Shown: one piece after another, positions 36,071-48,685 of the stretch
Layout: the number at the start of each line of letters is the position of its first letter
Position numbering within the stretch: position 1 is the first letter of the stretch
Origin: an uncultured Gammaproteobacteria bacterium
GTDB taxonomy: Bacteria; Patescibacteriota; Patescibacteriia; S139-126
Length of the DNA: 64,000 nucleotides
Assembly: GCA_964493305.1 (NCBI GenBank)
Contig: CAZBLW010000001.1
Coordinates: 113,484 to 177,483, forward strand
Direction of reading: 5' to 3'
The notes under the pieces: generated by a model
Seen by the model: only the letters and a program-made list of their open reading frames with translations
Told to the model about the DNA's origin: nothing
Databases searched by the model: none
Made by a program: the position numbers and the translations under genes

Positions 36071-36328
36071 ATGTCAAAGAAAATCTCAATCGTACCGGTA
36101 CAAAAGAAAGATCAATCAGCTAATGAAATATTGGCACAAGCTACACAGGGTACCTGTGATTTTTTCTCTCTGGTTTTTTTTGATGATTCAGTAAGAATCA
36201 AAAATATTTGTTGTGACATCATTGTTAATGAAAATGGTTCTGCCAAGCACATACCATGTGCGAGTTCAATTGATTTAATACCGGGACAGAGATTTAAAGT
36301 TAATGAGTTTATGTTTAGAGTAGTTTAA
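36071..36328 (+). CDS. Hypothetical small protein
   Basis: 85 aa; good SD (ggagg) 6 nt upstream; terminator hairpin downstream at 36344-36372. Confidence 0.4.
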   Translation: MSKKISIVPVQKKDQSANEILAQATQGTCDFFSLVFFDDSVRIKNICCDIIVNENGSAKHIPCASSIDLIPGQRFKVNEFMFRVV

Positions 36329-36343
36329 TTAGTTAAAATTATA

Positions 36344-36372
36344 AGCCCAAAGTATACACTTTGGGCTTTTTT
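36344..36372 (+). terminator. Rho-independent terminator
   Basis: agcccaaagt-atac-actttgggct + T6. Confidence 0.6.
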
Positions 36373-36422: not shown

Positions 36423-36513
36423 GGAGAGGTCGCATAGTGGTCTAGTGCGGTTGCTTGGAGAGCAACTAACGGTTCATAGCCGTTCGAGGGTTCGAATCCC
36501 TCCCTCTCCGCCA
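36423..36513 (+). tRNA. tRNA-Ser (anticodon GGA)
   Basis: GGAGAGGTCGCATAGTGG..., anticodon loop TTGGAGA, long variable arm, T-arm GAGGGTTCGAATCCCTC, CCA. Confidence 0.85.
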
Positions 36514-36839: not shown

Positions 36840-38426
36840 ATGAATAAAAAAGATTCAAATTCAAACAGGACAAAAGAACAAGAACGTTCAGAGCTTCATC
36901 GTGCTATTTGGCAAATAGCTACAGATTTACGAGGAAGCGTAGACGGTTGGGATTTTAAACAGTACGTACTGGGTATGCTTTTTTATCGGTTTATTAGTGA
37001 AAATTTGACCAACTATATAAACGATGATGAGAGTCGATCAGGTAACAAGAATTTTGATTATGCCATGCTTTCAGATAAAGAAGCTGAGTTTGGTCGGGCT
37101 GATACAGTAAAAGAAAAAGGTTTTTATATTTTGCCAAGTGAGCTTTTTGTTAATGTTCGTAAAAAAGCTCGTAATGACGCAAACCTTAATGAGACGCTCG
37201 CGTCTGTTTTTAGAAATATTGAAAATTCGGCAAAGGGTGCTAGTAGTGAAGATGATTTGAAGGGCTTATTTGATGATGTTGATGTTAATTCCAATAAATT
37301 AGGAGGAACAGTAGAAAAAAGAAATCAAAAGCTTGTGAAGTTATTAGAAGCAGTTGGTGACCTTAAGCTTGGTAATTACTCTGATAATACAATAGATGCT
37401 TTCGGTGATGCCTATGAATTCTTAATGGCAATGTATGCTTCAAATGCTGGAAAGTCTGGCGGTGAATATTACACTCCGCAAGAAGTTAGTGAATTGCTAG
37501 CAGAAATTACGACAGTCGGTAAAAAAGAGGTAAATAAGGTTTATGATCCAGCCTGTGGTTCTGGTTCTTTACTTTTAAAATTTGCAAAAGTTTTAGGTAA
37601 AGAAAATGTACGTCTTGGATTTTTTGGTCAAGAAATTAACCTGACCACATATAACCTTTGCCGTATTAACATGTTTTTGCATGATATAAATTATAATCAT
37701 TTTGATATTGCTCATGGTGATACTCTTACCGATCCTAAACATTGGGACGATGAGCCATTTGATGCCATAGTGTCCAATCCGCCATATTCAATCAAATGGG
37801 ATGGTGATGCAAACCCTCTTTTGATTAATGACCCTCGTTTTTCGCCAGCTGGTGTATTGGCTCCAAAAAGTAAAGCCGATCTAGCTTTTACAATGCATAT
37901 GCTTTCATGGCTTTCCACCAGCGGTACGGCAGCGATTGTTGAATTTCCCGGGGTCCTGTATAGAGGTGGAGCTGAACAGAAGATTCGAAAATATCTTGTA
38001 GATAATAATTATATTGATACGGTTATTCAACTTCCGCCTGATTTATTTTTTGGGGTTACAATAGCTACATGTATCATTGTTTTAAAAAAGAGTAAGAAAG
38101 ATAATAAGGTATTGTTTATAGATGCTAGTAAAGAGTTTATTAGGGGTGGAAATAAAAACAAATTGAGCGATACAAACCGCACTAAGATTTTAGATACATT
38201 TAAAAATCGTAACGACATAGAATACTTTGCCAAACTAGTAGAAAACAAGACTGTGGCTGAGAATGATTATAATATTGCGGTATCAAGTTATGTTGATATG
38301 CAGGACATTAGAGAAAAGGTGAATATCAAAGAGTTAAATAAAAAAATTGCTGAAATAGTTTCAAAACAAAATGATTTACGTAAGTCTATTGATAAGATTG
38401 TTAATGATATTGAGGGATCTAAGTAA
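36840..38426 (+). CDS. hsdM: Type I restriction-modification system methyltransferase subunit
   Basis: 528 aa; N6-adenine MTase motifs (DPACGSGSLL motif I, NPPYS motif IV); HsdM N-terminal domain. Confidence 0.9.
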   Translation: MNKKDSNSNRTKEQERSELHRAIWQIATDLRGSVDGWDFKQYVLGMLFYRFISENLTNYINDDESRSGNKNFDYAMLSDKEAEFGRADTVKEKGFYILPSELFVNVRKKARNDANLNETLASVFRNIENSAKGASSEDDLKGLFDDVDVNSNKLGGTVEKRNQKLVKLLEAVGDLKLGNYSDNTIDAFGDAYEFLMAMYASNAGKSGGEYYTPQEVSELLAEITTVGKKEVNKVYDPACGSGSLLLKFAKVLGKENVRLGFFGQEINLTTYNLCRINMFLHDINYNHFDIAHGDTLTDPKHWDDEPFDAIVSNPPYSIKWDGDANPLLINDPRFSPAGVLAPKSKADLAFTMHMLSWLSTSGTAAIVEFPGVLYRGGAEQKIRKYLVDNNYIDTVIQLPPDLFFGVTIATCIIVLKKSKKDNKVLFIDASKEFIRGGNKNKLSDTNRTKILDTFKNRNDIEYFAKLVENKTVAENDYNIAVSSYVDMQDIREKVNIKELNKKIAEIVSKQNDLRKSIDKIVNDIEGSK

Positions 38427-38432
38427 GAATGT

Positions 38433-39890
38433 ATGTATATATCAAAAATTAAATTTCATAATTTTAAAGGATTCAAGGGGGATCACGAGCTTAATTTTGA
38501 TAAAGGTATAAATTTTTTTGTTGGTGACAATAATTGTGGTAAATCAACGGTTTTTGAAGCAATCGATTTTATTTGTGCAAAGAAGGAAAGAAATGAAGTT
38601 ATTACTAAAACGGAAATTGAAGGTGATGATTTTGTTTCAGTTGAGATTGAATTTAGGGGTGAGGATATTAAACCTCTTATTGCCACAGAGGCATTAAAGA
38701 AATATGAATCATCTATTATAGAAGCCGCTGACCAGACTATTTTACGGGTGATGCGATCCAGTGAAGAAACAGAAATTACGCAGGGTGGTAAAAAAAAGAA
38801 TCTTGACATTAAGAATGTTCGTGTTTTTAACCCAACTTCTAGCCAGTTTGAAAACCCTACAGGAATTGATAATACAATTACAGCATTATTTGATGCACAA
38901 TTTGTTTGGGCTGATACTAATCCTGGCGATATTTCAGATTTTTCAAAAACTAAAATATGCGGAAAAATTATAAATGTGATCACTCAGGATTTTGTTAACT
39001 CTCAAACTTGGAAAAAATTTAGGGATTCCCATAAAGAAACTTTTGGCGATGGAGCAAATAGTCTAGCCACCACACTTAAACCGATTGAAGAGAAATTAAA
39101 GACTATTTTAACAGAACAGTACGGGGATACTGAGGTTAGATTTAGTTTTTCTCTCCCAGAAATAGAGAGTTTTTTTAAAACCGGAAATATTGATTTGTCG
39201 GAAGATGGTATTGAGACGAAGAGCTCGGAAAAAGGTACGGGTATGCAAAGGGCATTGGCCCTAGCACTTATTCAAGTATATGCTGACATTTCATCATCTA
39301 ATGGGGAAGATATTTCAAAGCCAATTCTATTCTTTATTGATGAACCGGAGACTTTTTTACATCCAAGAGCACAAAATAAGCTTCTTGATGCACTAGAGAA
39401 AATATCGGATAAATCACAAATTTTTATTATCACTCATTCCCCATATTTGTTAAAAAAATATAAAAAAGAAACCCATTCAATGAATGTTTTTTCAAAAGAG
39501 GCAGGATTAAACAAGGCTGAAGAAGGTAAGGAGTTTGATTTATTTGGAACGTCGAGTCCTACATGGGGAGAAATTAACTATTATGCCTTTGGAGTTCTGT
39601 CTGTCGAATTTCATAACGAACTGTATGGTTTTATTCAAGCAAAGGCGATTCTGGAAGATGAAAAAAATTATTTTGAAGAAGAATTCGAAAAGTACTTAGT
39701 TAATAAAGGCATTGTGCAGGATCAGCCATATATCCGTCTGAAAAAAGATGGCACTACAGAAAACCAGACAAGAACTTTACCAACGAAAATTAGAAATATT
39801 ATTCACCATCCAGACAACACATACAATACAAAATATACTGACGAAGAATTAAAAAGCTCTATCGAGTCTCTAATACCGCTATTGAAATGA
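38433..39890 (+). CDS. ABC/AAA15-type ATPase with C-terminal HEPN-like R-N-x3-H motif; PrrC/RloC-like candidate, a restriction-linked ORF nested in the type I R-M operon
   Basis: Walker [10 protein letters not shown] (aa 31-39), Walker B/D-loop [13 protein letters not shown]-loop ITHSP. C-terminal ~150 aa end with [11 protein letters not shown] (R-N-I-I-H-H). Confidence 0.5.
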
Positions 39891-41086
39891 CTAAACATCA
39901 AAGTAAAATTGAAAAATTAATCAATCAGTTATGCCCACAAGGTGTGGAATTTAAAGAGTTGGGGCAAATTTTGGATTATGAACAGCCAACTAAATATATA
40001 GTTAATTCCACTCGGTATAATGATGATTATGAAATCCCTGTTTTAACTGCTGGTCAAAGTTTTATTTTAGGTTACACAGATGAAATTGAGGGAGTATATG
40101 AATCTGGTAAAAAAAATCCAGTAATTATTTTTGATGATTTTACAACATCATTTCATTGGGTTGATTTTAATTTTAAAGTAAAGTCATCAGCAATGAAAAT
40201 GTTGAGGCCACATGAAGATGTTAAAGTAGACTTTAAATTTGTATATTATGCCATGAAGTGCATTAATTATGTTCCGCAAGATCATGCACGTCATTGGATA
40301 TCAAAGTATTCAAAATTTAAGATTCCTTTTCCACCTATCACAATTCAACAGGAAATAGTTCGTGTGCTAGACTCTTTTACAGAGCTGGAAGCAGAGCTGG
40401 AAGCAGAGCTGGAAGCAGAGCTGGAAGCAAGAAAGAGGCAATATGAGTATTATCGAAATGAATTATTTATATTTGATCAGAGCGTGAAATTTAAACATAT
40501 CAAAGAACTTTCTTTAGAAACTTTTTGGATAATGCCAGCAACTCCAAATTTTACATCCGATGGTAATGTGCCATATATCACATCAAAAAATATAAGAAGT
40601 GGTAACATAGATTTTACGAACGTAAAGAAGATATCAAGACAATCTTTTTTAAATATATCTAAAAATCGACCAATAGTTCGAGATGATATTTTGATAAGTA
40701 TGATTGGTACTATAGGTGAAGTTGCACGTGTTAAAGATAGTGATTTGGAGTTTTATGGTCAAAATATGTATCTTGTAAGATTGAATCAGGAGAAGATAGA
40801 CGTAGGTTATTTTTTACACTTTTTTGACTCAGATAAAATGAAAAACTACTTTGGCTCTATAAAGAATAGGTCCAGTCAAGGTTATCTAAAGGCTGGTCAA
40901 GTAGAATCTATTAAAATTCCAGTACCAGTATTAAGTGAACAAAAAAGAATAGCGGCCATATTAGATAAATTCGATGACCTTGTTAATGATATTTCAATTG
41001 GATTGCCAGCTGAAATTAAAGCTAGAAAATTACAGTATGAGTATTACAGAAGTAAACTTTTAACTTTTGCAGAATATGCCAGTTAA
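39887..41086 (+). CDS. hsdS: Type I restriction-modification system specificity subunit
   Basis: 399 aa; two TRDs separated by a central conserved region (…[29 protein letters not shown]) and a C-terminal conserved region ([16 protein letters not shown]). Confidence 0.85.
40382..40429 (+). repeat. Perfect 4x tandem 12-bp repeat (gagctggaagca) encoding (ELEA)4 in the central conserved region of hsdS
   Basis: Directly visible tandem repeat; in-frame (12 nt). Confidence 0.9.
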
Positions 41087-44000
41087 TAAATACAATTTAG
41101 TTGCCGAAAATTCCCAAAGCACAGTAGTAGCGGAATATACACCAGACAAAAAGCGCTCTAAAAATTACCAAAGCGAGGCAGAATTAGAGAGTGCTTTTAT
41201 CGAGTTACTTAAAACGCAGGCCTATGATTATTTGACTATTACGTCTGAGGATGATCTGATATCAAATTTACGCAAGCAGTTGGAAAAACTTAATGGTTTT
41301 GAATTTAGTGATTCGGAATGGAGTCAGTTTTTTGAAAGTGAGATTGCTAATCCAAATCAGGGTATTGAAGAAAAGACAGAAACTATTCAAGAAGATTATA
41401 TTAAAAATTTAACCCGTGATGACGGCACGGTTAAAAATGTATATCTTTTGAAAAAAGATAATATACACGACAATAATTTACAGGTCATTAACCAATATGC
41501 AACTGAGAAGGGTCAACGAGCTAATCGCTATGATGTAACAGTTCTTGTTAATGGTTTACCACTAGTACACATTGAGCTTAAGCGTCGTGGTGTAGCTATA
41601 CAGGAGGCTTTCAATCAAATTAATCGTTACCAACGAGAGAGTTTTTGGGCTGCGTCTGGCCTTTTTGAATATGTACAGTTATTTGTCATTTCCAATGGCA
41701 CTCATACAAAATACTATAGCAACACTACTCGTTTAGAACATATCAAAGAATCAGTTGAAGGATCAGTCAAAAAGGGCAAAAAGACAAGTAATAGTTTTGA
41801 ATTTACAAGCTGGTGGGCGGATGCTACTAACCGTCCAATTATGGATTTAATGGACTTTGGTAAAACTTTTTTTGCCAAGCATGCTATTTTGAATATTTTG
41901 ACTCGCTATTGTGTATTTACAACAGATCGCTTGTTGCTTGTTATGCGACCCTACCAAATTGTTGCAACAGAAAGAATATTAAATAGGGTAGAAGTTAGCA
42001 CAAACTACAAAAAACTTGGCACTGTTGAGGCCGGTGGGTATGTGTGGCATACTACTGGATCTGGCAAAACGTTAACCAGTTTTAAAACAGCTCAGTTAAT
42101 TAGTAAATTGTCAGATGTTGAAAAAGTATTATTTATTGTCGATCGTAAGGATTTAGATTATCAGACAATGCGGGAATATGACAAGTTTGAAAAAGGGGCG
42201 GCCAATAGTAACACCAGTACGGCAATTTTAAAAAAACAAATTGAAAATCCTAATACTCGTATAATTATTACTACTATCCAAAAGTTGGATCGTTTTATCG
42301 CCCGTAACGGAGGCCATAATATTTTCAACGGGCATGTTGTTTTAATTTTTGATGAATGTCATCGTTCTCAATTTGGTGAGATGCACGCAGCCATTACAAA
42401 GTCATTTAAAAATTATCACATCTTTGGTTTTACGGGTACGCCGATTTTTGCAGTTAACGCTTCATCAAGCGGGCGACCAGATTTAAGGACTACCGAGCAA
42501 GCCTTTGGTGATAAACTACATACCTATACTATTGTTGATGCTATTGCTGATAAAAACGTTTTGCCGTTTAAGGTTGATTATGTTTCTACGGTGCGAGAAG
42601 CGGAAGACATCGAAGACAAAAAGGTTAGTGATATTGATCGTGAGGCGGTACTGTCTTCGCCTGAACGTTTGTCTAAAATTGTTGGTTACATTCGTGAACA
42701 TTTTGATCAAAAAACTAAACGTAACAGTTTTTATAAACTAAAAGATAGACGTCTAGCTGGCTTTAATTCCATTTTTGCTGTTTCTTCAATTGACGTTGCT
42801 AAAAAGTATTATGCGGAATTCAAAAAGCAATTGGCTGATTTGCCAAGTGATAAACAGCTTAAAGTTGCTTTGATTTACAGCTTTGGTGTAAATGACGAAG
42901 ACGCTGACGGCATGATTGATGAAAATTTAGAAGATACCAGCGGACTGGATAAAAGTTCACGTGACTTTTTAGATAGTGCTATTTCAGATTATAATTTAAT
43001 GTTTGGCACTTCTTATGACACTTCTTCTGATAAGTTTCAAAATTACTATAAAGATGTAAGTCAGCGGGTAAAAGATAGGGAAATTGATATTCTTATCGTG
43101 GTCAATATGTTTTTGACTGGTTTTGATGCAACAACGCTTAATACTCTTTGGGTAGATAAAAACTTGCGATTGCATGGACTATTGCAGGCTTATTCTCGTA
43201 CCAATAGAATTCTAAATAGCATAAAAACATTTGGTAATATTATTTGCTTCCGTAATTTAGAAAAAGCAACTAATGAATCAATCGCTCTTTTTGGCGACAA
43301 GGAAGCAAGCGGTATTGTTCTTTTGAAATCATACGAGGAATATTATCATGGTTATAAAGACGGTAAAAAAGAAGTACGTGGTTATGAGAGTTTGGTTAAT
43401 GAGCTGTTAGAAAAGTTTCCTGTCAGCGAACGAATCATGGGCGAACAAGATCAGAAAGATTTTATTAGGCTATATAGTGCTATTTTAAGAGTGCGTAATA
43501 TTCTAGTAACCTTTGATGAGTTTGCTGGCAACGAGATTTTAACTGAGCGTGATGTTCAGGATTACCATAGCATGTATATTGATTTGTATAATGAGTTTAA
43601 AAAAGCGGTTGAAAATGAAAAAGAAAATATCAACGAGGATTTAGTATTTGAAATGGAGCTTATTAAACAGATTGAGATCAATATTGACTATGTTTTGGGA
43701 TTGATCAAAAAATATCATGAAGATCATACTAAGAATCGAGAAATTCTATTAGATATAAATAAGGCGATTGATTCTAGTGTTGGGTTACGTAATAAGAAAG
43801 ATCTCATCAATAAATTTATTACCTCCCTTGACGTTCATTCGGTTGTTGATGATGATTGGAAGAAATTTGTTGAAAAGAAGAAGCTTGAAGAGCTTGATGA
43901 AATCATTGCTAAGGAAAATCTTGATCGAGACGCAACTTATAAATTTATAAAAAATGCATTTCGTGATGGAGGTATTGCAACCGCTGGTACGGCCATAACT

Positions 44001-44126
44001 AAAGTTTTACCACCTGTATCTCGTTTTTCTCCGACTGGTGAGCGTAGTAAAAAGCGTGATAGTGTTTTAGGTAAACTAACAATTTTTTTTGAAAGATTCT
44101 TTGATATTTCAGAAGGTAATTTTTAA
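41067..44126 (+). CDS. hsdR: Type I restriction enzyme endonuclease/helicase subunit
   Basis: 1019 aa; Walker [13 protein letters not shown]-box FDECHRS, SF2 helicase motifs; overlaps the hsdS stop. Confidence 0.9.
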
Positions 44127-44134
44127 TATAGTTG

Positions 44135-45463
44135 CTATAGAGATAGTATTTTATTTTTAAAGCTAATTATTTTATTTCTCAATAAAATTTCACCATTTAG
44201 ACAAGCAAGTAAATCTCGCTTCTCCTGATCCTCACCCTCTCTTAAAATAAATTTTGCATAGTTATTAATATCGACGTCATTCACGTCGATATTATCATTT
44301 TTACCCGTAACCATATTTTGAAACTTTTTAAATCTCCGTATATCTGATTTAATCTTGTTTTGCATCGGGGATTTATTGAAATCGAATTCATCCGTGAGCT
44401 TTTGTAGTTGTTTGATCAAATCAGTTTCATTAATATATCCGCTTTTGCAGTACTTGTCTTTGGCTTTGGTGCATCCGTAATATACATGCCGGTTATACTC
44501 ACCGTTTTTCAATTTCTTGAATTTCTCAGTGGCAGAGATGCCTGATCCGCATAAACCGCATTTCATTATCTTGGTAAAAGCAAACTCAATATTTTCTCTC
44601 CTCACCAGTTGCGAGTTTTTCATCTGTTCCTGAACTTGATCAAACAATTCCTTAGTAATAATAGGTTGGTGTTTCCCCTGATACCAATTGCCTGACCCTC
44701 TGGGGTACTCAAACGGCCCGTAATAGAACGTATTCTCCAATAAGCGGTAGATATTACCCAGGCTCAAATGTTTCTTGCCTAGGGCTGTTCTAAAGTTCAA
44801 TTCAAACCGCAGCCAGTGATAGAGTTTTCTGCCTGACCATTTTTCATAGGCGACTTTTTCAAACATCTGCTTAATAACTGGCCCCCTCTCAGGATCAATC
44901 AAGCATTCTCCCTTATGGTCGACTCTTTTCTCTTTTAGATACCCTGTGGGAGGGCAGGTCGGCCATAAGCCCATCTCACATCTCGTTCTCAAACCTCTTT
45001 TGACATTAATGCCTCGGTTATCATTCTCCAGCTTGGCCTGAGAACAAAGTATCATGAGCAAAAACTTTTCATTGGGTGAATTACTGAATGTTTGTCCGAA
45101 TGTTCTGATGCCTAAAAGTTTTTTCGCATCCATAAGATCCACGAGCGATCCTAAATCACCAGCATTTCTTGATAACCTGTCCGGTGCCCAGGTGAGAATG
45201 GCATTGAATTTATCTTCGCGAATATCACGCAGGATCTCCCTAAACACCGGGCGCTTGTCTGAATCCTTGGCTGATTTTGCTTCACGCCGTATATCTATGA
45301 TTTCAAGATTCTCTCGCTCCGCTATCTGGAGCATTTCTTTTACCTGCGAATCAATGGACAGCGCCTGCCGCTCGTCTGATTCAGTGCTTTTCCGGGCATA
45401 TAAACAATACCTCAGCTTATCTGCCACCTGTATGGGATCCTTTTGTTTGGTAGTAATCTCCAT
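44135..45463 (-). CDS. Serine recombinase (resolvase catalytic domain + recombinase domain + zinc ribbon; small member of the large-serine-recombinase type)
   Basis: N-terminal YARKSTESDERQALSIDSQ catalytic Ser/Arg motif; C-terminal Cys cluster CGLCGSG...YYGCTKAKDKYC. Confidence 0.8.
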   Translation of the reverse strand: MEITTKQKDPIQVADKLRYCLYARKSTESDERQALSIDSQVKEMLQIAERENLEIIDIRREAKSAKDSDKRPVFREILRDIREDKFNAILTWAPDRLSRNAGDLGSLVDLMDAKKLLGIRTFGQTFSNSPNEKFLLMILCSQAKLENDNRGINVKRGLRTRCEMGLWPTCPPTGYLKEKRVDHKGECLIDPERGPVIKQMFEKVAYEKWSGRKLYHWLRFELNFRTALGKKHLSLGNIYRLLENTFYYGPFEYPRGSGNWYQGKHQPIITKELFDQVQEQMKNSQLVRRENIEFAFTKIMKCGLCGSGISATEKFKKLKNGEYNRHVYYGCTKAKDKYCKSGYINETDLIKQLQKLTDEFDFNKSPMQNKIKSDIRRFKKFQNMVTGKNDNIDVNDVDINNYAKFILREGEDQEKRDLLACLNGEILLRNKIISFKNKILSL

Positions 45464-45563: not shown

Positions 45564-47027
45564 TTAAATAAAATATATCCTTGGTACACGAGGGGGCTTT
45601 TCAGAAACACTATGTACTAAGTTGGAAAATGCGTCGACTAAATCGTCGTGTTTTTCTACGCCAAAATGAACGATCTGCTGTATCAGTTGTTCGGCTCCTT
45701 TTCTTGGAAACAGTACTTGTCCTGATTTGATGAGGTTAGCGGTCAGCACTAGGCGACTTCTCTTATCTTGATAACCGGGCCGGGTGGTCATGACGTGCCA
45801 CAACCCCTCGCTTTTTAATTGTTGCGGTAGGGCTTTTTGATACGCAACATCTTCGATGATAAACGTCGGAGGCAGACCATCTCTTTCATAACTTTTTTCC
45901 AGTAGCTTACAAGTATCAACGGTTTCGGGGAATGTCATGCGCCTATTGATGATTTTTGGAAGAATATATACACGATAACTCGTTTCAGTTTCATATAATA
46001 ATCCCAGTACCATAGCGGTATAGTCGGCAAGATTACTTTTTGAAATAGCGGGGTCAATGCCAATCCTTACTTCCATATGTGAGGAATAACCACTCTTAAA
46101 TTTTATTGGCGCCGGTATTTCATCATAGAAATGAATCCATTCCGGATAGATAGCTTGATCTTCGTCTGGAATAATATTCAGCAAGAATTCGCGTTGCCAA
46201 GCGATATCATCGCCAACTTTTCTTTTTTCAGCTTCAATGTCCTCACTGGTTGGATATTTGCCGGGCCATAAACATTTCCCTTTATTATCGATCAGGGGGA
46301 AATAAAGAAAGTTACCGTCAATGTTGTTATGTTCAGATTCGTCTTTCAAGCGCATGAGGAGCGAATCCTCGTGCAAGAGATTGCCCACCACGATTAACCG
46401 TGTGTTTTTATCCCCGGCTGGAATAACCTCGCCCTTGAGCCATTGATACGTCTTATTTCTGCCTTCCCGTGTCTTGGTTGAGGTCATATCTTCCACGTCA
46501 TCGCAAATAATCAAATCCGGACGATGTTCATGATGCCGAAGCCCCCGGATGCTTTGCTCAGTGGATGCTACGGTAATGCGCGCATCGGTATTGGAAAATA
46601 CCAGGGAATGCGAGCCCCATTCGTCGTTATCTTCTTGAAACGGGCCAAGGTCTTTTTTTAACAAATCATTATCCTCAAGCTCCCGGCGTAAATTCATCAT
46701 GTGTTGCTTGGCCTGGGTTTGGGTCTGGCAAAAAATGACCACAAACTTTTTTTGTTGTTTGCCTAAGATTGCCCAGATCGGATAAGCCGTGGTGATAACA
46801 GTAGATTTTCCTGATCCGCGGAAGGCGACCACAAACAGATTTTTATGGTCATTTATTTCGAGGAGATGGATAATCTCTTTTTGAAAATCTGCCGTGGCAT
46901 ATTTGACGTAGTGGGCGTAGTAGAAGTGAAAGAAGTAAGAAAAACTTTCCTTAGTGATGGCTATTCGTACTTTCTTGTCTTTCGTCATCTGCTCCACCAG
47001 GTCCTGTGGAATTATTTCGGTTGTCAT
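45564..47027 (-). CDS. terL: Phage terminase large subunit
   Basis: 487 aa; Walker A AFRGSGKST in the N-terminal ATPase; C-terminal RNase-H-like nuclease region with acidic residues (IGIDPA...). Confidence 0.8.
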   Translation of the reverse strand: MTTEIIPQDLVEQMTKDKKVRIAITKESFSYFFHFYYAHYVKYATADFQKEIIHLLEINDHKNLFVVAFRGSGKSTVITTAYPIWAILGKQQKKFVVIFCQTQTQAKQHMMNLRRELEDNDLLKKDLGPFQEDNDEWGSHSLVFSNTDARITVASTEQSIRGLRHHEHRPDLIICDDVEDMTSTKTREGRNKTYQWLKGEVIPAGDKNTRLIVVGNLLHEDSLLMRLKDESEHNNIDGNFLYFPLIDNKGKCLWPGKYPTSEDIEAEKRKVGDDIAWQREFLLNIIPDEDQAIYPEWIHFYDEIPAPIKFKSGYSSHMEVRIGIDPAISKSNLADYTAMVLGLLYETETSYRVYILPKIINRRMTFPETVDTCKLLEKSYERDGLPPTFIIEDVAYQKALPQQLKSEGLWHVMTTRPGYQDKRSRLVLTANLIKSGQVLFPRKGAEQLIQQIVHFGVEKHDDLVDAFSNLVHSVSEKPPRVPRIYFI

Positions 47028-47421
47028 CTGGTTTAATGTTTAATGGTAAAATTTGAGCCAATTGCAAGGCCTTGTGTACAATTTCGGTTTGCGAGGGGGT
47101 TAATTCTCCGGTATCGTCGAATTTGGAAGTGACCTCGACCTTGTCTTTGAATTTTGGATTCCGGTGGCGGAGCCAAAAGCTGATGGCTGACCAGTTTTTC
47201 TCTTTGATGAGCGTGAGGAGTTGGCTCTCGCTCATGTCATTCACTAGCGCCTCACCCTCAGCTAAGGCCTCGTCCATATCCTGACTGAATGTTTTATCTT
47301 CTCGTTTCCAGCGATATACGCTGTTGCGGGAAATACCTGTTTTTTCGCAAGCAACCTGCACAATGGGTATTTTTCGCAGTTCATCGAGAAAACCGTTTTT
47401 TACCTTATTTTTCTTGGCCAT
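46951..47421 (-). CDS. HTH protein, terminase small subunit-like
   Basis: 156 aa; N-terminal HTH (VACEKTGISRNSVYRWKRED); located immediately upstream of terL, with its 3' end overlapping the terL 5' end by ~77 nt in another frame. Confidence 0.5.
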   Translation of the reverse strand: MAKKNKVKNGFLDELRKIPIVQVACEKTGISRNSVYRWKREDKTFSQDMDEALAEGEALVNDMSESQLLTLIKEKNWSAISFWLRHRNPKFKDKVEVTSKFDDTGELTPSQTEIVHKALQLAQILPLNIKPDDNRNNSTGPGGADDERQESTNSHH

Positions 47422-48685
47422 ATACTTTTGCTTTAATACCTGTTAACCGCTCGTACCTCTTTATCGCTAAATCGCAAAAAATCGGTTCAAGCTCCATGGC
47501 ATAGACCTTTCGTTTTAATTGTTCCCCGGCGATAAGCGTACTGGCTGACCCGGAAAATGAATCAAGAATAATATCACCAGGCTTACTGCAGCGCCGGATC
47601 GCTTTTTCGTGGAGTTTCGGCGGCTTGCTGGTGGCGTGTTCGTATTTTTTGCCAGCCAAACGCTTCACCAGCCACACGTCCAGTTCATCCAGGCTTTCTT
47701 CCAACAGGTTATTCCCTGTGGTTATTTCCTTATTTAAGATTTCATTGAGATTTTTGATGGAGGGCGCAATGTATGGTTTTCCTTTCACGCCGTACACGGC
47801 TGGCTCATAGCATTTGTTAAACGCGGTCTGGGGTGTTGGGTTTTGTGAGTTTTTAATCCACAGACAGACACGTTTGTTCGCAATGCCAAGCTCTCGATAC
47901 AGTTCTTGCATCAGGCCTATATATGTCTGGTCGCACCAGTAGAAGATGTGGCAATCCGGCCTTGCCACCGATACGGCGGCAATAAGGGTGTCTTTAATGA
48001 ATTGTTTATATTCCTCATATGATCGGTTATCATTCACCACTCCACCGTAGTCCTTTTTTCCTCCAATGCCCTTGGTGTAATTAAGATTCAAATTATATGG
48101 AGGATCACTATATATAACCGATGCCCGGTCGTTGCCAAAGAGCCGCTTGAGGTTTTTGGGATCGGTTGAACTACCGCAGAGCAGTCGATGTGGTCCTAGC
48201 ACGATTAAGTCACCCAATTTAGTTTTGGGAGTTTTAATTTTTTTGATCTCCTGTTCAATGTCGAAATCTTCGTCTTTCACCTCCAGCTCGTTATCCCACA
48301 GGTGTGAAAGGTCAATCTGATCAAATCCCACATCAAGCAATAGATCCAAGTCAAAAGATTTCAGTTTTTCAAAATCCCAGTCACCGCCCAGGGCGTTGCT
48401 GGCTATGAGGTATTGTTTAGCCTCTTTTTCTGTGAGTTTGCGACTAGGGATACGGACATCAATAACTTCTTCCCCTCTGCCCAGAAATTGTAAGGCCTTG
48501 ATCCGCTGATGCCCGGCTAATATTTTCCCGTTAATATCAATAGCGGGAATTTCAACCAGATTGTATCTGGTGAGACTTTTTTTTAGATCCGACATTTGTT
48601 TGTCGGTGATGGTGCGAGGGTTCACGTCTTGGGGGATAAGATCGTTTACTCGCTTTTGCACGGTGTGCCACGTCAGTTTTTTCAT
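47405..48685 (-). CDS. ParB-like nuclease domain / DNA N6-adenine or N4-cytosine methyltransferase fusion
   Basis: N-terminal ParB/Srx motif (AGHQRIKA); MTase motif IV SDPPY followed by motif I LDSFSGSAST (beta-class order). Confidence 0.8.
   Translation of the reverse strand: MKKLTWHTVQKRVNDLIPQDVNPRTITDKQMSDLKKSLTRYNLVEIPAIDINGKILAGHQRIKALQFLGRGEEVIDVRIPSRKLTEKEAKQYLIASNALGGDWDFEKLKSFDLDLLLDVGFDQIDLSHLWDNELEVKDEDFDIEQEIKKIKTPKTKLGDLIVLGPHRLLCGSSTDPKNLKRLFGNDRASVIYSDPPYNLNLNYTKGIGGKKDYGGVVNDNRSYEEYKQFIKDTLIAAVSVARPDCHIFYWCDQTYIGLMQELYRELGIANKRVCLWIKNSQNPTPQTAFNKCYEPAVYGVKGKPYIAPSIKNLNEILNKEITTGNNLLEESLDELDVWLVKRLAGKKYEHATSKPPKLHEKAIRRCSKPGDIILDSFSGSASTLIAGEQLKRKVYAMELEPIFCDLAIKRYERLTGIKAKVYGQEK

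Follow-up and report, generated by a model that had tools for sequence, protein, structure and literature searches.

The anticodon nucleases PrrC and RloC combine, in a single polypeptide, an ATPase of the ATP-binding cassette (ABC) type with a C-terminal ribonuclease (RNase). They are defined by shared ABC motifs and by a catalytic Arg-x3-Glu-x36-52-His triad, in which a serine often precedes the histidine; PrrC proteins span 341-416 amino acids (aa) and RloC proteins 658-897 aa, the latter with a coiled-coil insert carrying a CxxC zinc hook (PMC2610378). According to one account, prrC is always linked to a restriction-modification (R-M) system (PMC3458546). The linkage of RloC to type I or type III R-M is facultative; its genes are found on mobile elements and its regulation is presumably internal, via its own ATPase (PMC2610378). 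Here we describe a gene, which we call X, lying between hsdM and hsdS in a stretch of 64,000 nucleotides, hereafter the window (GenBank assembly GCA_964493305.1, contig CAZBLW010000001.1, positions 113,484 to 177,483), deposited as an uncultured Gammaproteobacteria bacterium and placed by GTDB in Patescibacteriota. We lean towards the view that X is a single-polypeptide defence effector, with an ATPase of the OLD/GajA/AriA class as its sensor and switch and with a HEPN-like RNase where members of that class usually have a Toprim domain. X resembles PrrC and RloC in its design but, within the reach of our tests, not by common descent.

Two other groups of systems matter for comparison. The OLD family, with P2 Old, class 1 OLD, GajA and the retron Eco8 effector, is defined by a C-terminal Toprim domain behind an ABC ATPase. 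P2 OLD cuts tRNA; it is an autoinhibited tetramer, triggered by Gam or by RecBCD defects, and the July 2026 preprint that reports this names only PrrC and RloC as ABC-HEPN tRNases (bioRxiv 10.64898/2026.07.10.737580). In PARIS, anti-restriction proteins prompt an ABC ATPase sensor to release an effector that cuts tRNA; this effector, the Toprim protein AriB, is reported to be a tRNase (PMC10802454, PMC12409363). Further fusions of an ABC ATPase with a C-terminal HEPN domain, APECO1_4465 and ERFG_01251, are described by Anantharaman et al. (2013), who often place such fusions in R-M operons that also contain RhuM- or Fic/Doc-like genes, as well as within prophages (PMC3710099). The association of an ABC ATPase and a HEPN domain with R-M is an established concept (PMC3710099). 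What appears to be new in X, judging from its sequence, is that its ATPase comes from another clade, that its HEPN-like clade is an orphan by sequence and bears a distinctive HHPEN extension, and that its R-M partners are chosen promiscuously. Text searches of the literature for ABC-HEPN, ATPase-HEPN and OLD-HEPN fusions returned noise only, and the family may be listed in earlier comparative surveys.

An ATPase assigned to the OLD class

A sequence-only reading of the window had described X as a 485-aa open reading frame (ORF) with Walker A, Walker B/D-loop and H-loop motifs, nested between hsdM and hsdS of a type I R-M operon. All the motifs that it quoted are where it placed them (Table 1), and the neighbours were confirmed. 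An ABC signature-like sequence, GTGMQRA, follows at aa 268-274, separated from Walker A by an insert of about 200 aa. Over aa 1-345, X matches the Pfam families AAA_15 (5.5e-31) and AAA_21 (9e-25), with weaker matches to SMC_N and AAA_23. Its best PADLOC model is Old (1.1e-51), aligned at model positions 2-346 of 578 only, followed by AriA (3.6e-32), GajA, an ATPase-Toprim model, MADS3, NsnB and PtuA; its top phage match is P2 Old, over aa 1-376 only. The full-length structure model has a pLDDT confidence score of 91.9. X thus carries an apparently active ABC ATPase, which we assign to the OLD/GajA/AriA class and not to that of PrrC and RloC; the earlier suggestion that X may be a distinct variant holds in this sense.

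The likeness to OLD proteins ends with the ATPase. The Toprim domain that defines them is absent from X, where aa 373-485 are instead predicted to form an alpha-helical, HEPN-like domain; the last 146 aa, which match nothing in Pfam or PADLOC, are modelled as a bundle of helices plus a single hairpin. The annotation of X as an OLD nuclease proper, found in databases, is ruled out by this lack of a Toprim domain. With PARIS, X shares the AriA-like ATPase and, conceptually, the idea of a sensor that lets loose an effector. PARIS, however, is made of two genes, with a DUF4435/Toprim partner, whereas the effector of X is fused and HEPN-like. No AriB-like DUF4435/Toprim gene lies beside X in the window, where its neighbours are hsdM and hsdS, and no conserved partner gene recurs across the 80 X loci described below.

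A conserved C-terminal domain of predicted HEPN type

The C-terminal domain contains the sequence RNIIHH, the sole R-x4-6-H of the protein. From composition, an R-[NHQD]-x3-H motif would be expected by chance about 0.04 times. What raises the motif above chance is its conservation across homologues, not its single occurrence. An alignment of 81 homologues that are 21-83% identical to X shows no change at R454, H458 or H459; position 455 holds N in 66 sequences and H in 13, and P460, E461 and N462 are more than 90% conserved. Nearly all members of the family carry the signature [IV]-R-[NH]-x-[IV]-H-H-P-E-N. Divergent members without H458 keep a histidine at R+5, the canonical histidine of Rx4H. 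Rx4-6H with a polar residue (N, D or H) after the arginine, the mark of HEPN RNases, is therefore present in the family. A second motif, EFHNELYG, is conserved in the same alignment (H394 in 79 sequences, E396 in 74, Y398 in 76 and G399 in 74). The sequence-only reading had placed the arginine-histidine motif at the very end of a C-terminal region of about 150 aa. The motif is there and the region exists; yet 23 residues, forming a last helix, follow the motif, and the part outside the ATPase comes to about 115-140 aa.

The domain is widespread. A search with aa 340-485 against 1.84 billion cluster representatives gave 566 clusters (50% identity) at E≤1e-3, almost all of them with the domain at the C-terminus of proteins of 450-500 aa. 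All ten of the unusual or short architectures that were checked had AAA_15/AAA_21 upstream, the short ones being N-terminal truncations. The domain is accordingly a dedicated partner of the ATPase clade to which X belongs, and was found in no other fusion.

Its predicted fold agrees with the motif. As described by Anantharaman et al. (2013), HEPN domains are four-helix up-down bundles, often with additional residues inserted between the second and third helices; Rx4-6H lies where helix 3 ends or the loop towards helix 4 begins (PMC3710099). A model of the domain built from the 81-sequence alignment (pLDDT 94.4), with the same secondary structure as in the full-length model, has a helix at 378-386, a long helix at 391-408, a third at 449-458 ending in R454 and H458/H459, and, after a loop, a fourth at 470-484; short helices (410-424) and a beta-hairpin (429-448) form an insert between helices 2 and 3. 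Bundle, insert and motif position each match the described layout, and the conserved acidic/histidine pair H394 and E396 lies in the long helix before the motif helix. Foldseek found no match in the PDB below E 0.7. With moderate confidence, and on the strength of motif, predicted topology and an enrichment of matches with no single strong one among them, we regard the domain as HEPN-like. Two checks proposed with the sequence-only reading, a HEPN-like fold and conservation of the R/H pair, thus came out in its favour, the former as a prediction.

Comparison with PrrC and RloC

The parallel with PrrC is close at the level of architecture. In each, one protein chain joins an ABC ATPase at its N-terminus to a small nuclease domain of the HEPN class at its C-terminus, predicted in the case of X; each lies inside a type IC-like hsd operon and would suit a role as a second barrier should restriction fail. 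With RloC, X has in common an ABC ATPase joined to a C-terminal RNase (again predicted for X), a facultative linkage to R-M, and occurrence on mobile elements.

The details differ. The ATPase of PrrC is of the AAA_13 type, and Pfam finds no match to AAA_13 (PF13166) in X at E≤0.01. A regular-expression search of the protein found no R-x3-E-x36-52-H triad, in the place of which X has a canonical contiguous Rx4H. There is no CxxC zinc hook in X, whose cysteines are only at 35, 48 and 176, and the insert in its ATPase is predicted to be mixed beta/alpha, not a long coiled coil. With 485 aa, X is larger than PrrC and about half the size of RloC. Unlike prrC, the X family is linked to R-M in only about half of its loci, and there to types I, II and III.

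As a positive control we used a 738-aa AAA_13 ATPase of a P2-like prophage in Escherichia coli APEC O1, found by genome position; it is encoded at 45933-48149 of locus L088, between the replication-endonuclease and portal genes of the prophage, and we guess that it may be of the APECO1_4465 type. This protein matches AAA_13 over the whole model (2e-111) and has MRNILE-x39-SH, with these residues invariant among its relatives. BLASTP of X against it aligned the P-loop only. When the C-terminal profile of the X family was compared with the AAA_13 C-terminal profile by hhalign, the probability was 1.8% over 27 columns; the sole stretch aligned, TLxTyIRNxI with vilPNiMRNIL, makes the R-N positions overlap, which is suggestive but insignificant. 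Without AAA_13 or triad, and with this profile probability, X is ruled out as an orthologue of PrrC or RloC. Of the PrrC/RloC-like ATPase-HEPN protein first proposed, the architecture thus stands and the kinship does not. X homologues show the same types of neighbourhood as the APECO1_4465 and ERFG_01251 families (PMC3710099).

Genomic context of the family

The closest relatives of X (72-83% identity) are abundant in Patescibacteria metagenomes. A scan of one genome per species gave 80 loci; ORFs around X were called and clustered, and representatives were annotated with Pfam. The loci span phyla of the Candidate Phyla Radiation (CPR), the Streptococcus mitis/oralis/infantis/suis group, Gardnerella, Campylobacter, Enterococcus and Lactobacillus, as well as Actinomycetota, Proteobacteria, Spirochaetota, Planctomycetota and Chloroflexota. 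The recurrence at R-M loci on which the sequence-only reading depended was found: an R-M gene lies within two genes of X at 45 of 79 loci (24 of type I, 12 of type III and nine of type II/IIG/IV) and none at the other 34. X has an R-M gene as its immediate same-strand neighbour at 42 of 78 species-representative loci; the gaps have a median of 3 nucleotides (nt), and 50 of 53 measure 30 nt or less. Such short same-strand gaps argue for operonic embedding rather than mere proximity within an island.

Type I loci are ordered hsdM-X-hsdS-hsdR or, at L052, L064, L071 and L073, hsdM-hsdS-X-hsdR. The latter is the order of the prr locus, so that the difference in gene order from prr noted earlier is true of the window and not of all homologues. 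Type III loci, mostly in streptococci, read mod-res-X. Those with type II, IIG or IV genes include Dam-DpnII-methylase-X, EcoRI-methylase-X-(DUF2130)-GmrSD and Eco57I-like fusions. Genes for Fic, RhuM, Bro-N, DUF2130 and AbiEi/AbiEii recur nearby, and companions of the Fic, RhuM, Bro-N, DUF2130 and AbiE types are reported around RloC-like ABC-HEPN genes (PMC3710099). At several type I loci (L007, L015, L021, L044, L064, L073 and others), passengers encoding Fic/DOC, RhuM or Bro-N lie between X and either hsdM or hsdR; DUF2130 is found downstream of hsdR in related type I loci. With these extra passengers, the hsd operon acts as a site that takes up several pieces of cargo together.

At loci without R-M genes, X stands alone among housekeeping genes (guaA, transketolase, the his operon, ABC transporters). 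Plasmid copies are solitary and flanked by insertion sequences (IS) or recombinase genes, as in Lactobacillus helveticus pLH1, in a Klebsiella IncFIB plasmid, where two ISNCY elements enclose the gene, and in a Weissella plasmid. Among 5,426 complete E. coli genomes, ten have a full-length homologue (38% identity, with FIRNHIHHPEN), annotated 'ATP-dependent nuclease'; it is the first gene after a prophage integrase, a cargo position, near rcnR/yehA (L086/L087). All these copies keep Rx4H.

Some copies are unusual. In Candidatus Enterococcus wittei (L047, 5945-11452) the X homologue makes up the C-terminal quarter of an uninterrupted 1,835-aa ORF, behind an N-terminal HTH_3 domain and about 1,280 aa without a Pfam match; the ORF is a giant fusion or else owes its length to a mis-called start. 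X is split by a frameshift or stop in about seven of the 80 loci (L022, L049, L050, L056, L058, L062, L077), among them those of Streptococcus oralis E665, from a complete genome, and of Alloscardovia venturai CCM 8604, from the assembly of a cultured strain; in metagenome-assembled genomes a split copy could be an assembly error. The split copies suggest that the gene has been inactivated repeatedly, as would be expected if it were costly or toxic.

A proposed mechanism and its alternatives

Our best reading of the sequence is that X is a self-regulated, R-M-linked abortive-infection RNase. In such a protein R454-N-x3-H459 would be a metal-independent RNase site. At rest, an ATPase oligomer would hold the HEPN domains apart or occluded. 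A cue from infection would shift the ATPase to another nucleotide or oligomeric state; two HEPN domains would then pair, as HEPN sites usually require, into a composite active site that cuts cellular RNA, with tRNA or some other RNA of translation as the likeliest target. With translation halted, the infection would be aborted, which in the window would make X a second line behind a type IC-like hsdMSR restriction system. We suppose tRNA because PrrC and RloC cut it, and because Toprim effectors paired with the most closely related ATPases are reported to do so as well. What the sequences themselves show is the domain composition, the conservation of the motifs, the predicted fold, the linkage to R-M genes and mobility as a single gene; the RNase activity itself, the RNA target, the trigger and the abortive outcome are all things that we infer.

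A number of points weigh against this reading. The C-terminal domain by itself has no match in Pfam at E≤10, 40 diverse family members gave no consistent Pfam match for it, it has no PADLOC match at E≤10 in six diverse members, and a sequence-profile search of the PDB with it came back empty; at the level of sequence it is an orphan, with no link to any HEPN family. The placement of R454 and H459 in the predicted fold is taken from the layout of secondary structure, not from coordinates. The conserved H458, P460, E461 and N462 fall outside the canonical HEPN signature and could point to a different chemistry. About 36 of 78 loci have no defence gene beside X, so that a role in defence is drawn only from the context of the majority. 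Finally, no experiment or paper on the X family was found in the searchable literature.

As to control, the sequence-only reading had X held silent by the R-M complex. This is not supported as a general property of the family, given neighbours of types I, II and III and about half of the loci without adjacent R-M. Since stand-alone copies are common and the R-M partners structurally unrelated, autoinhibition, with a trigger common to restriction failure, is favoured over masking in the manner of PrrC: the protein most likely controls itself, as RloC or P2 Old does, and is not governed by HsdMS. A more far-reaching version of this, which we put forward tentatively and hold to be possible rather than probable, would make the X family a widespread, portable single-gene guard for abortive infection, in which an OLD-class ABC ATPase drives a new HEPN clade marked by R-N-x-I-H-H-P-E-N and which works with any R-M type (I, II or III) or alone. 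It would sense a common cue (anti-restriction proteins, protected DNA ends and RecBCD inhibition are candidates) while binding no particular R-M enzyme, and would respond by cutting tRNA or other RNA.

Masking by the type I enzyme might nevertheless apply at the locus in the window, where X would be kept latent by binding HsdM2S/HsdR and freed by a phage anti-restriction factor that hits this enzyme. The 6-nt gap and 4-nt overlap that join X to its neighbours favour co-translation and stoichiometric assembly; the R-M system is EcoR124-like or type IC-like, the class to which EcoprrI, the partner of PrrC, is assigned (PMC3710099); and most homologues above 70% identity keep the order M-X-S-R, within a type I linkage that extends to 24 of 79 loci and includes the four with the M-S-X-R order of prr. 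The same family, however, is operonic with unrelated type III (mod-res-X) and type II genes (DpnII; EcoRI-methylase with GmrSD), and has copies without R-M neighbours on plasmids, prophages and chromosomes, where a toxic nuclease dependent on masking by HsdMS could not survive. Even relatives at 75-79% identity (L008, L013, L014) are already without type I neighbours. We therefore think such control unlikely.

It is less likely still that the domain is a DNA nuclease, or works by metal-dependent chemistry with H394/E396 and H458-H459-P-E-N as metal ligands, so that X would degrade or nick DNA as OLD-family enzymes were long believed to do. There are, to be sure, more conserved residues than a HEPN site needs (H394, E396, H458, P460, E461, N462), ATPases of this class as a rule power Toprim nucleases that act on DNA, GajA among them, and the beta-hairpin right before the motif helix gives a superficial likeness to a beta-beta-alpha finger. 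Yet the hairpin is poorly conserved and has no conserved histidine, HEPN RNases have the same R-[NH]-x3-H spacing and likewise carry it where helix 3 ends, and the Toprim effectors of OLD and PARIS are themselves now reported to cut tRNA.

That the domain is a non-catalytic binding or dimerisation module, making X an accessory R-M ATPase for restriction regulation or DNA loading and no toxin, we consider very improbable: some HEPN-fold domains are non-catalytic binders (PMC3710099), and the seven split copies in about 80 loci would suit a dispensable gene (toxicity or assembly error accounting for them equally well), but non-catalytic HEPN domains have, in that same source, lost Rx4-6H, while here R and H are invariant at 21-83% identity, the gene travels alone in IS-flanked plasmid segments and at a prophage edge, as is typical of self-sufficient defence cargo, and it associates with three mechanistically different R-M types.

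The R-M cassette of the window

In the window, a gene for a helix-turn-helix (HTH) protein, hsdM, X, hsdS and hsdR form one operon (Table 1). Six nt separate the stop of hsdM from the start of X, the stop of X and the start of hsdS overlap by 4 nt, and no convincing intrinsic terminator was found within hsdM-hsdR, where only weak stems of 5-6 bp occur on the sense strand. X would therefore be co-transcribed and translationally coupled with hsdMSR. The EcoR124_C domain of HsdR marks the system as type IC-like; hsdR further matches HSDR_N, SWI2_SNF2 and T1R_D3-like models in Pfam, and TIGR00348 (9.2e-170), and hsdM matches NCBIfam TIGR00497 at 3.6e-228. The HTH protein is probably the controller of the operon: an identical gene on contig L001 matches HTH_3, HTH_19 and HTH_31, and the same HTH protein is encoded upstream of hsdM at the related loci L010, L015 and L021.

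Table 1. Position of X, its motifs and neighbouring genes in the window
Feature	Position	Strand	Remarks
X, 485-aa ABC ATPase with HEPN-like domain	38433..39890	+	ATG start
N-terminal ABC ATPase, OLD/GajA/AriA type (assigned), aa 1-345	38433..39467	+	
Walker A, aa 31-39	38523..38549	+	G36 ≥90% conserved, K37 invariant (homologue alignment)
Walker B/D-loop, aa 300-311	39330..39365	+	E304, P305, E306 invariant; D303, H310 ≥90%
H-loop ITHSP, aa 333-337	39429..39443	+	H335 invariant
C-terminal HEPN-like domain (predicted), aa ~373-485	39549..39887	+	
Second motif EFHNELYG, aa 392-399	39606..39629	+	Start of long helix
R454-x4-H459 (HEPN-type) motif, aa 452-462	39786..39818	+	Signature R-[NH]-x-[IV]-H-H-P-E-N
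XRE-type HTH protein, 73 aa	36615..36836	+	ORF call
hsdM, type I methyltransferase subunit	36840..38426	+	Pfam N6_Mtase 7.8e-117, HsdM_N 3.1e-20
hsdS, specificity subunit	39887..41086	+	Pfam Methylase_S 2.8e-34; PADLOC Specificity_I 3.9e-108
hsdR, restriction subunit, EcoR124 (type IC-like) kind	41067..44126	+	Pfam EcoR124_C 2.1e-66; listed TTG start uncertain
Large serine recombinase	44135-45463	-	Higher-G+C segment
Terminase-like protein	45564-47027	-	Higher-G+C segment
N6_N4 DNA methylase	47405-48685	-	Higher-G+C segment

Several other features of the neighbourhood may be recorded. At 40380-40427, hsdS contains a perfect tandem 12-nt repeat, CAGAGCTGGAAG, in four copies, coding for 16 aa of the central conserved region, an array that we take to resemble the 4-aa TAEL repeats of type IC HsdS. 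The number of TAEL copies sets the spacer length of the recognition site in these proteins, and slippage in the repeat could act as a specificity switch. About 100 nt upstream of the R-M cassette lies a tRNA-Ser(GGA) gene (36423-36513), a typical site for the insertion of islands; no convincing att-like direct repeats of the 3' end of this tRNA-Ser were found around the cassette. Between ppsA and the tRNA gene, an 85-aa ORF (36071-36328) has no match in Pfam, PADLOC or NCBIfam, and a strong terminator-like hairpin (36343-36368) follows it. Directly downstream of hsdR, on the minus strand, a segment from 44135 to about 50000 has a G+C content of 0.40-0.45, against about 0.33-0.36 around it; with its recombinase, terminase-like and methylase genes it looks like an integrated phage-like element or its remnant.

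Significance

If the proposed reading is true, 'suicide' nucleases that join an ABC ATPase to a HEPN domain arose at least twice, as PrrC and RloC on an AAA_13 ATPase and as X on an OLD/AriA ATPase in which Toprim was swapped for HEPN. X would also be a defence gene missed by current detection libraries, its C-terminal domain being absent from Pfam (2025 copy) and from PADLOC v2. The family is common and open to experiment, in the Streptococcus mitis/oralis/suis group beside type III R-M, in Gardnerella, Campylobacter and lactobacilli, on plasmids of Klebsiella and of lactic-acid bacteria, and in prophages of E. coli, and it occurs in Patescibacteria, where few defences have been described. 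Its association with three types of R-M makes it testable what couples the failure of restriction to abortive infection, be it direct masking or a shared downstream cue.

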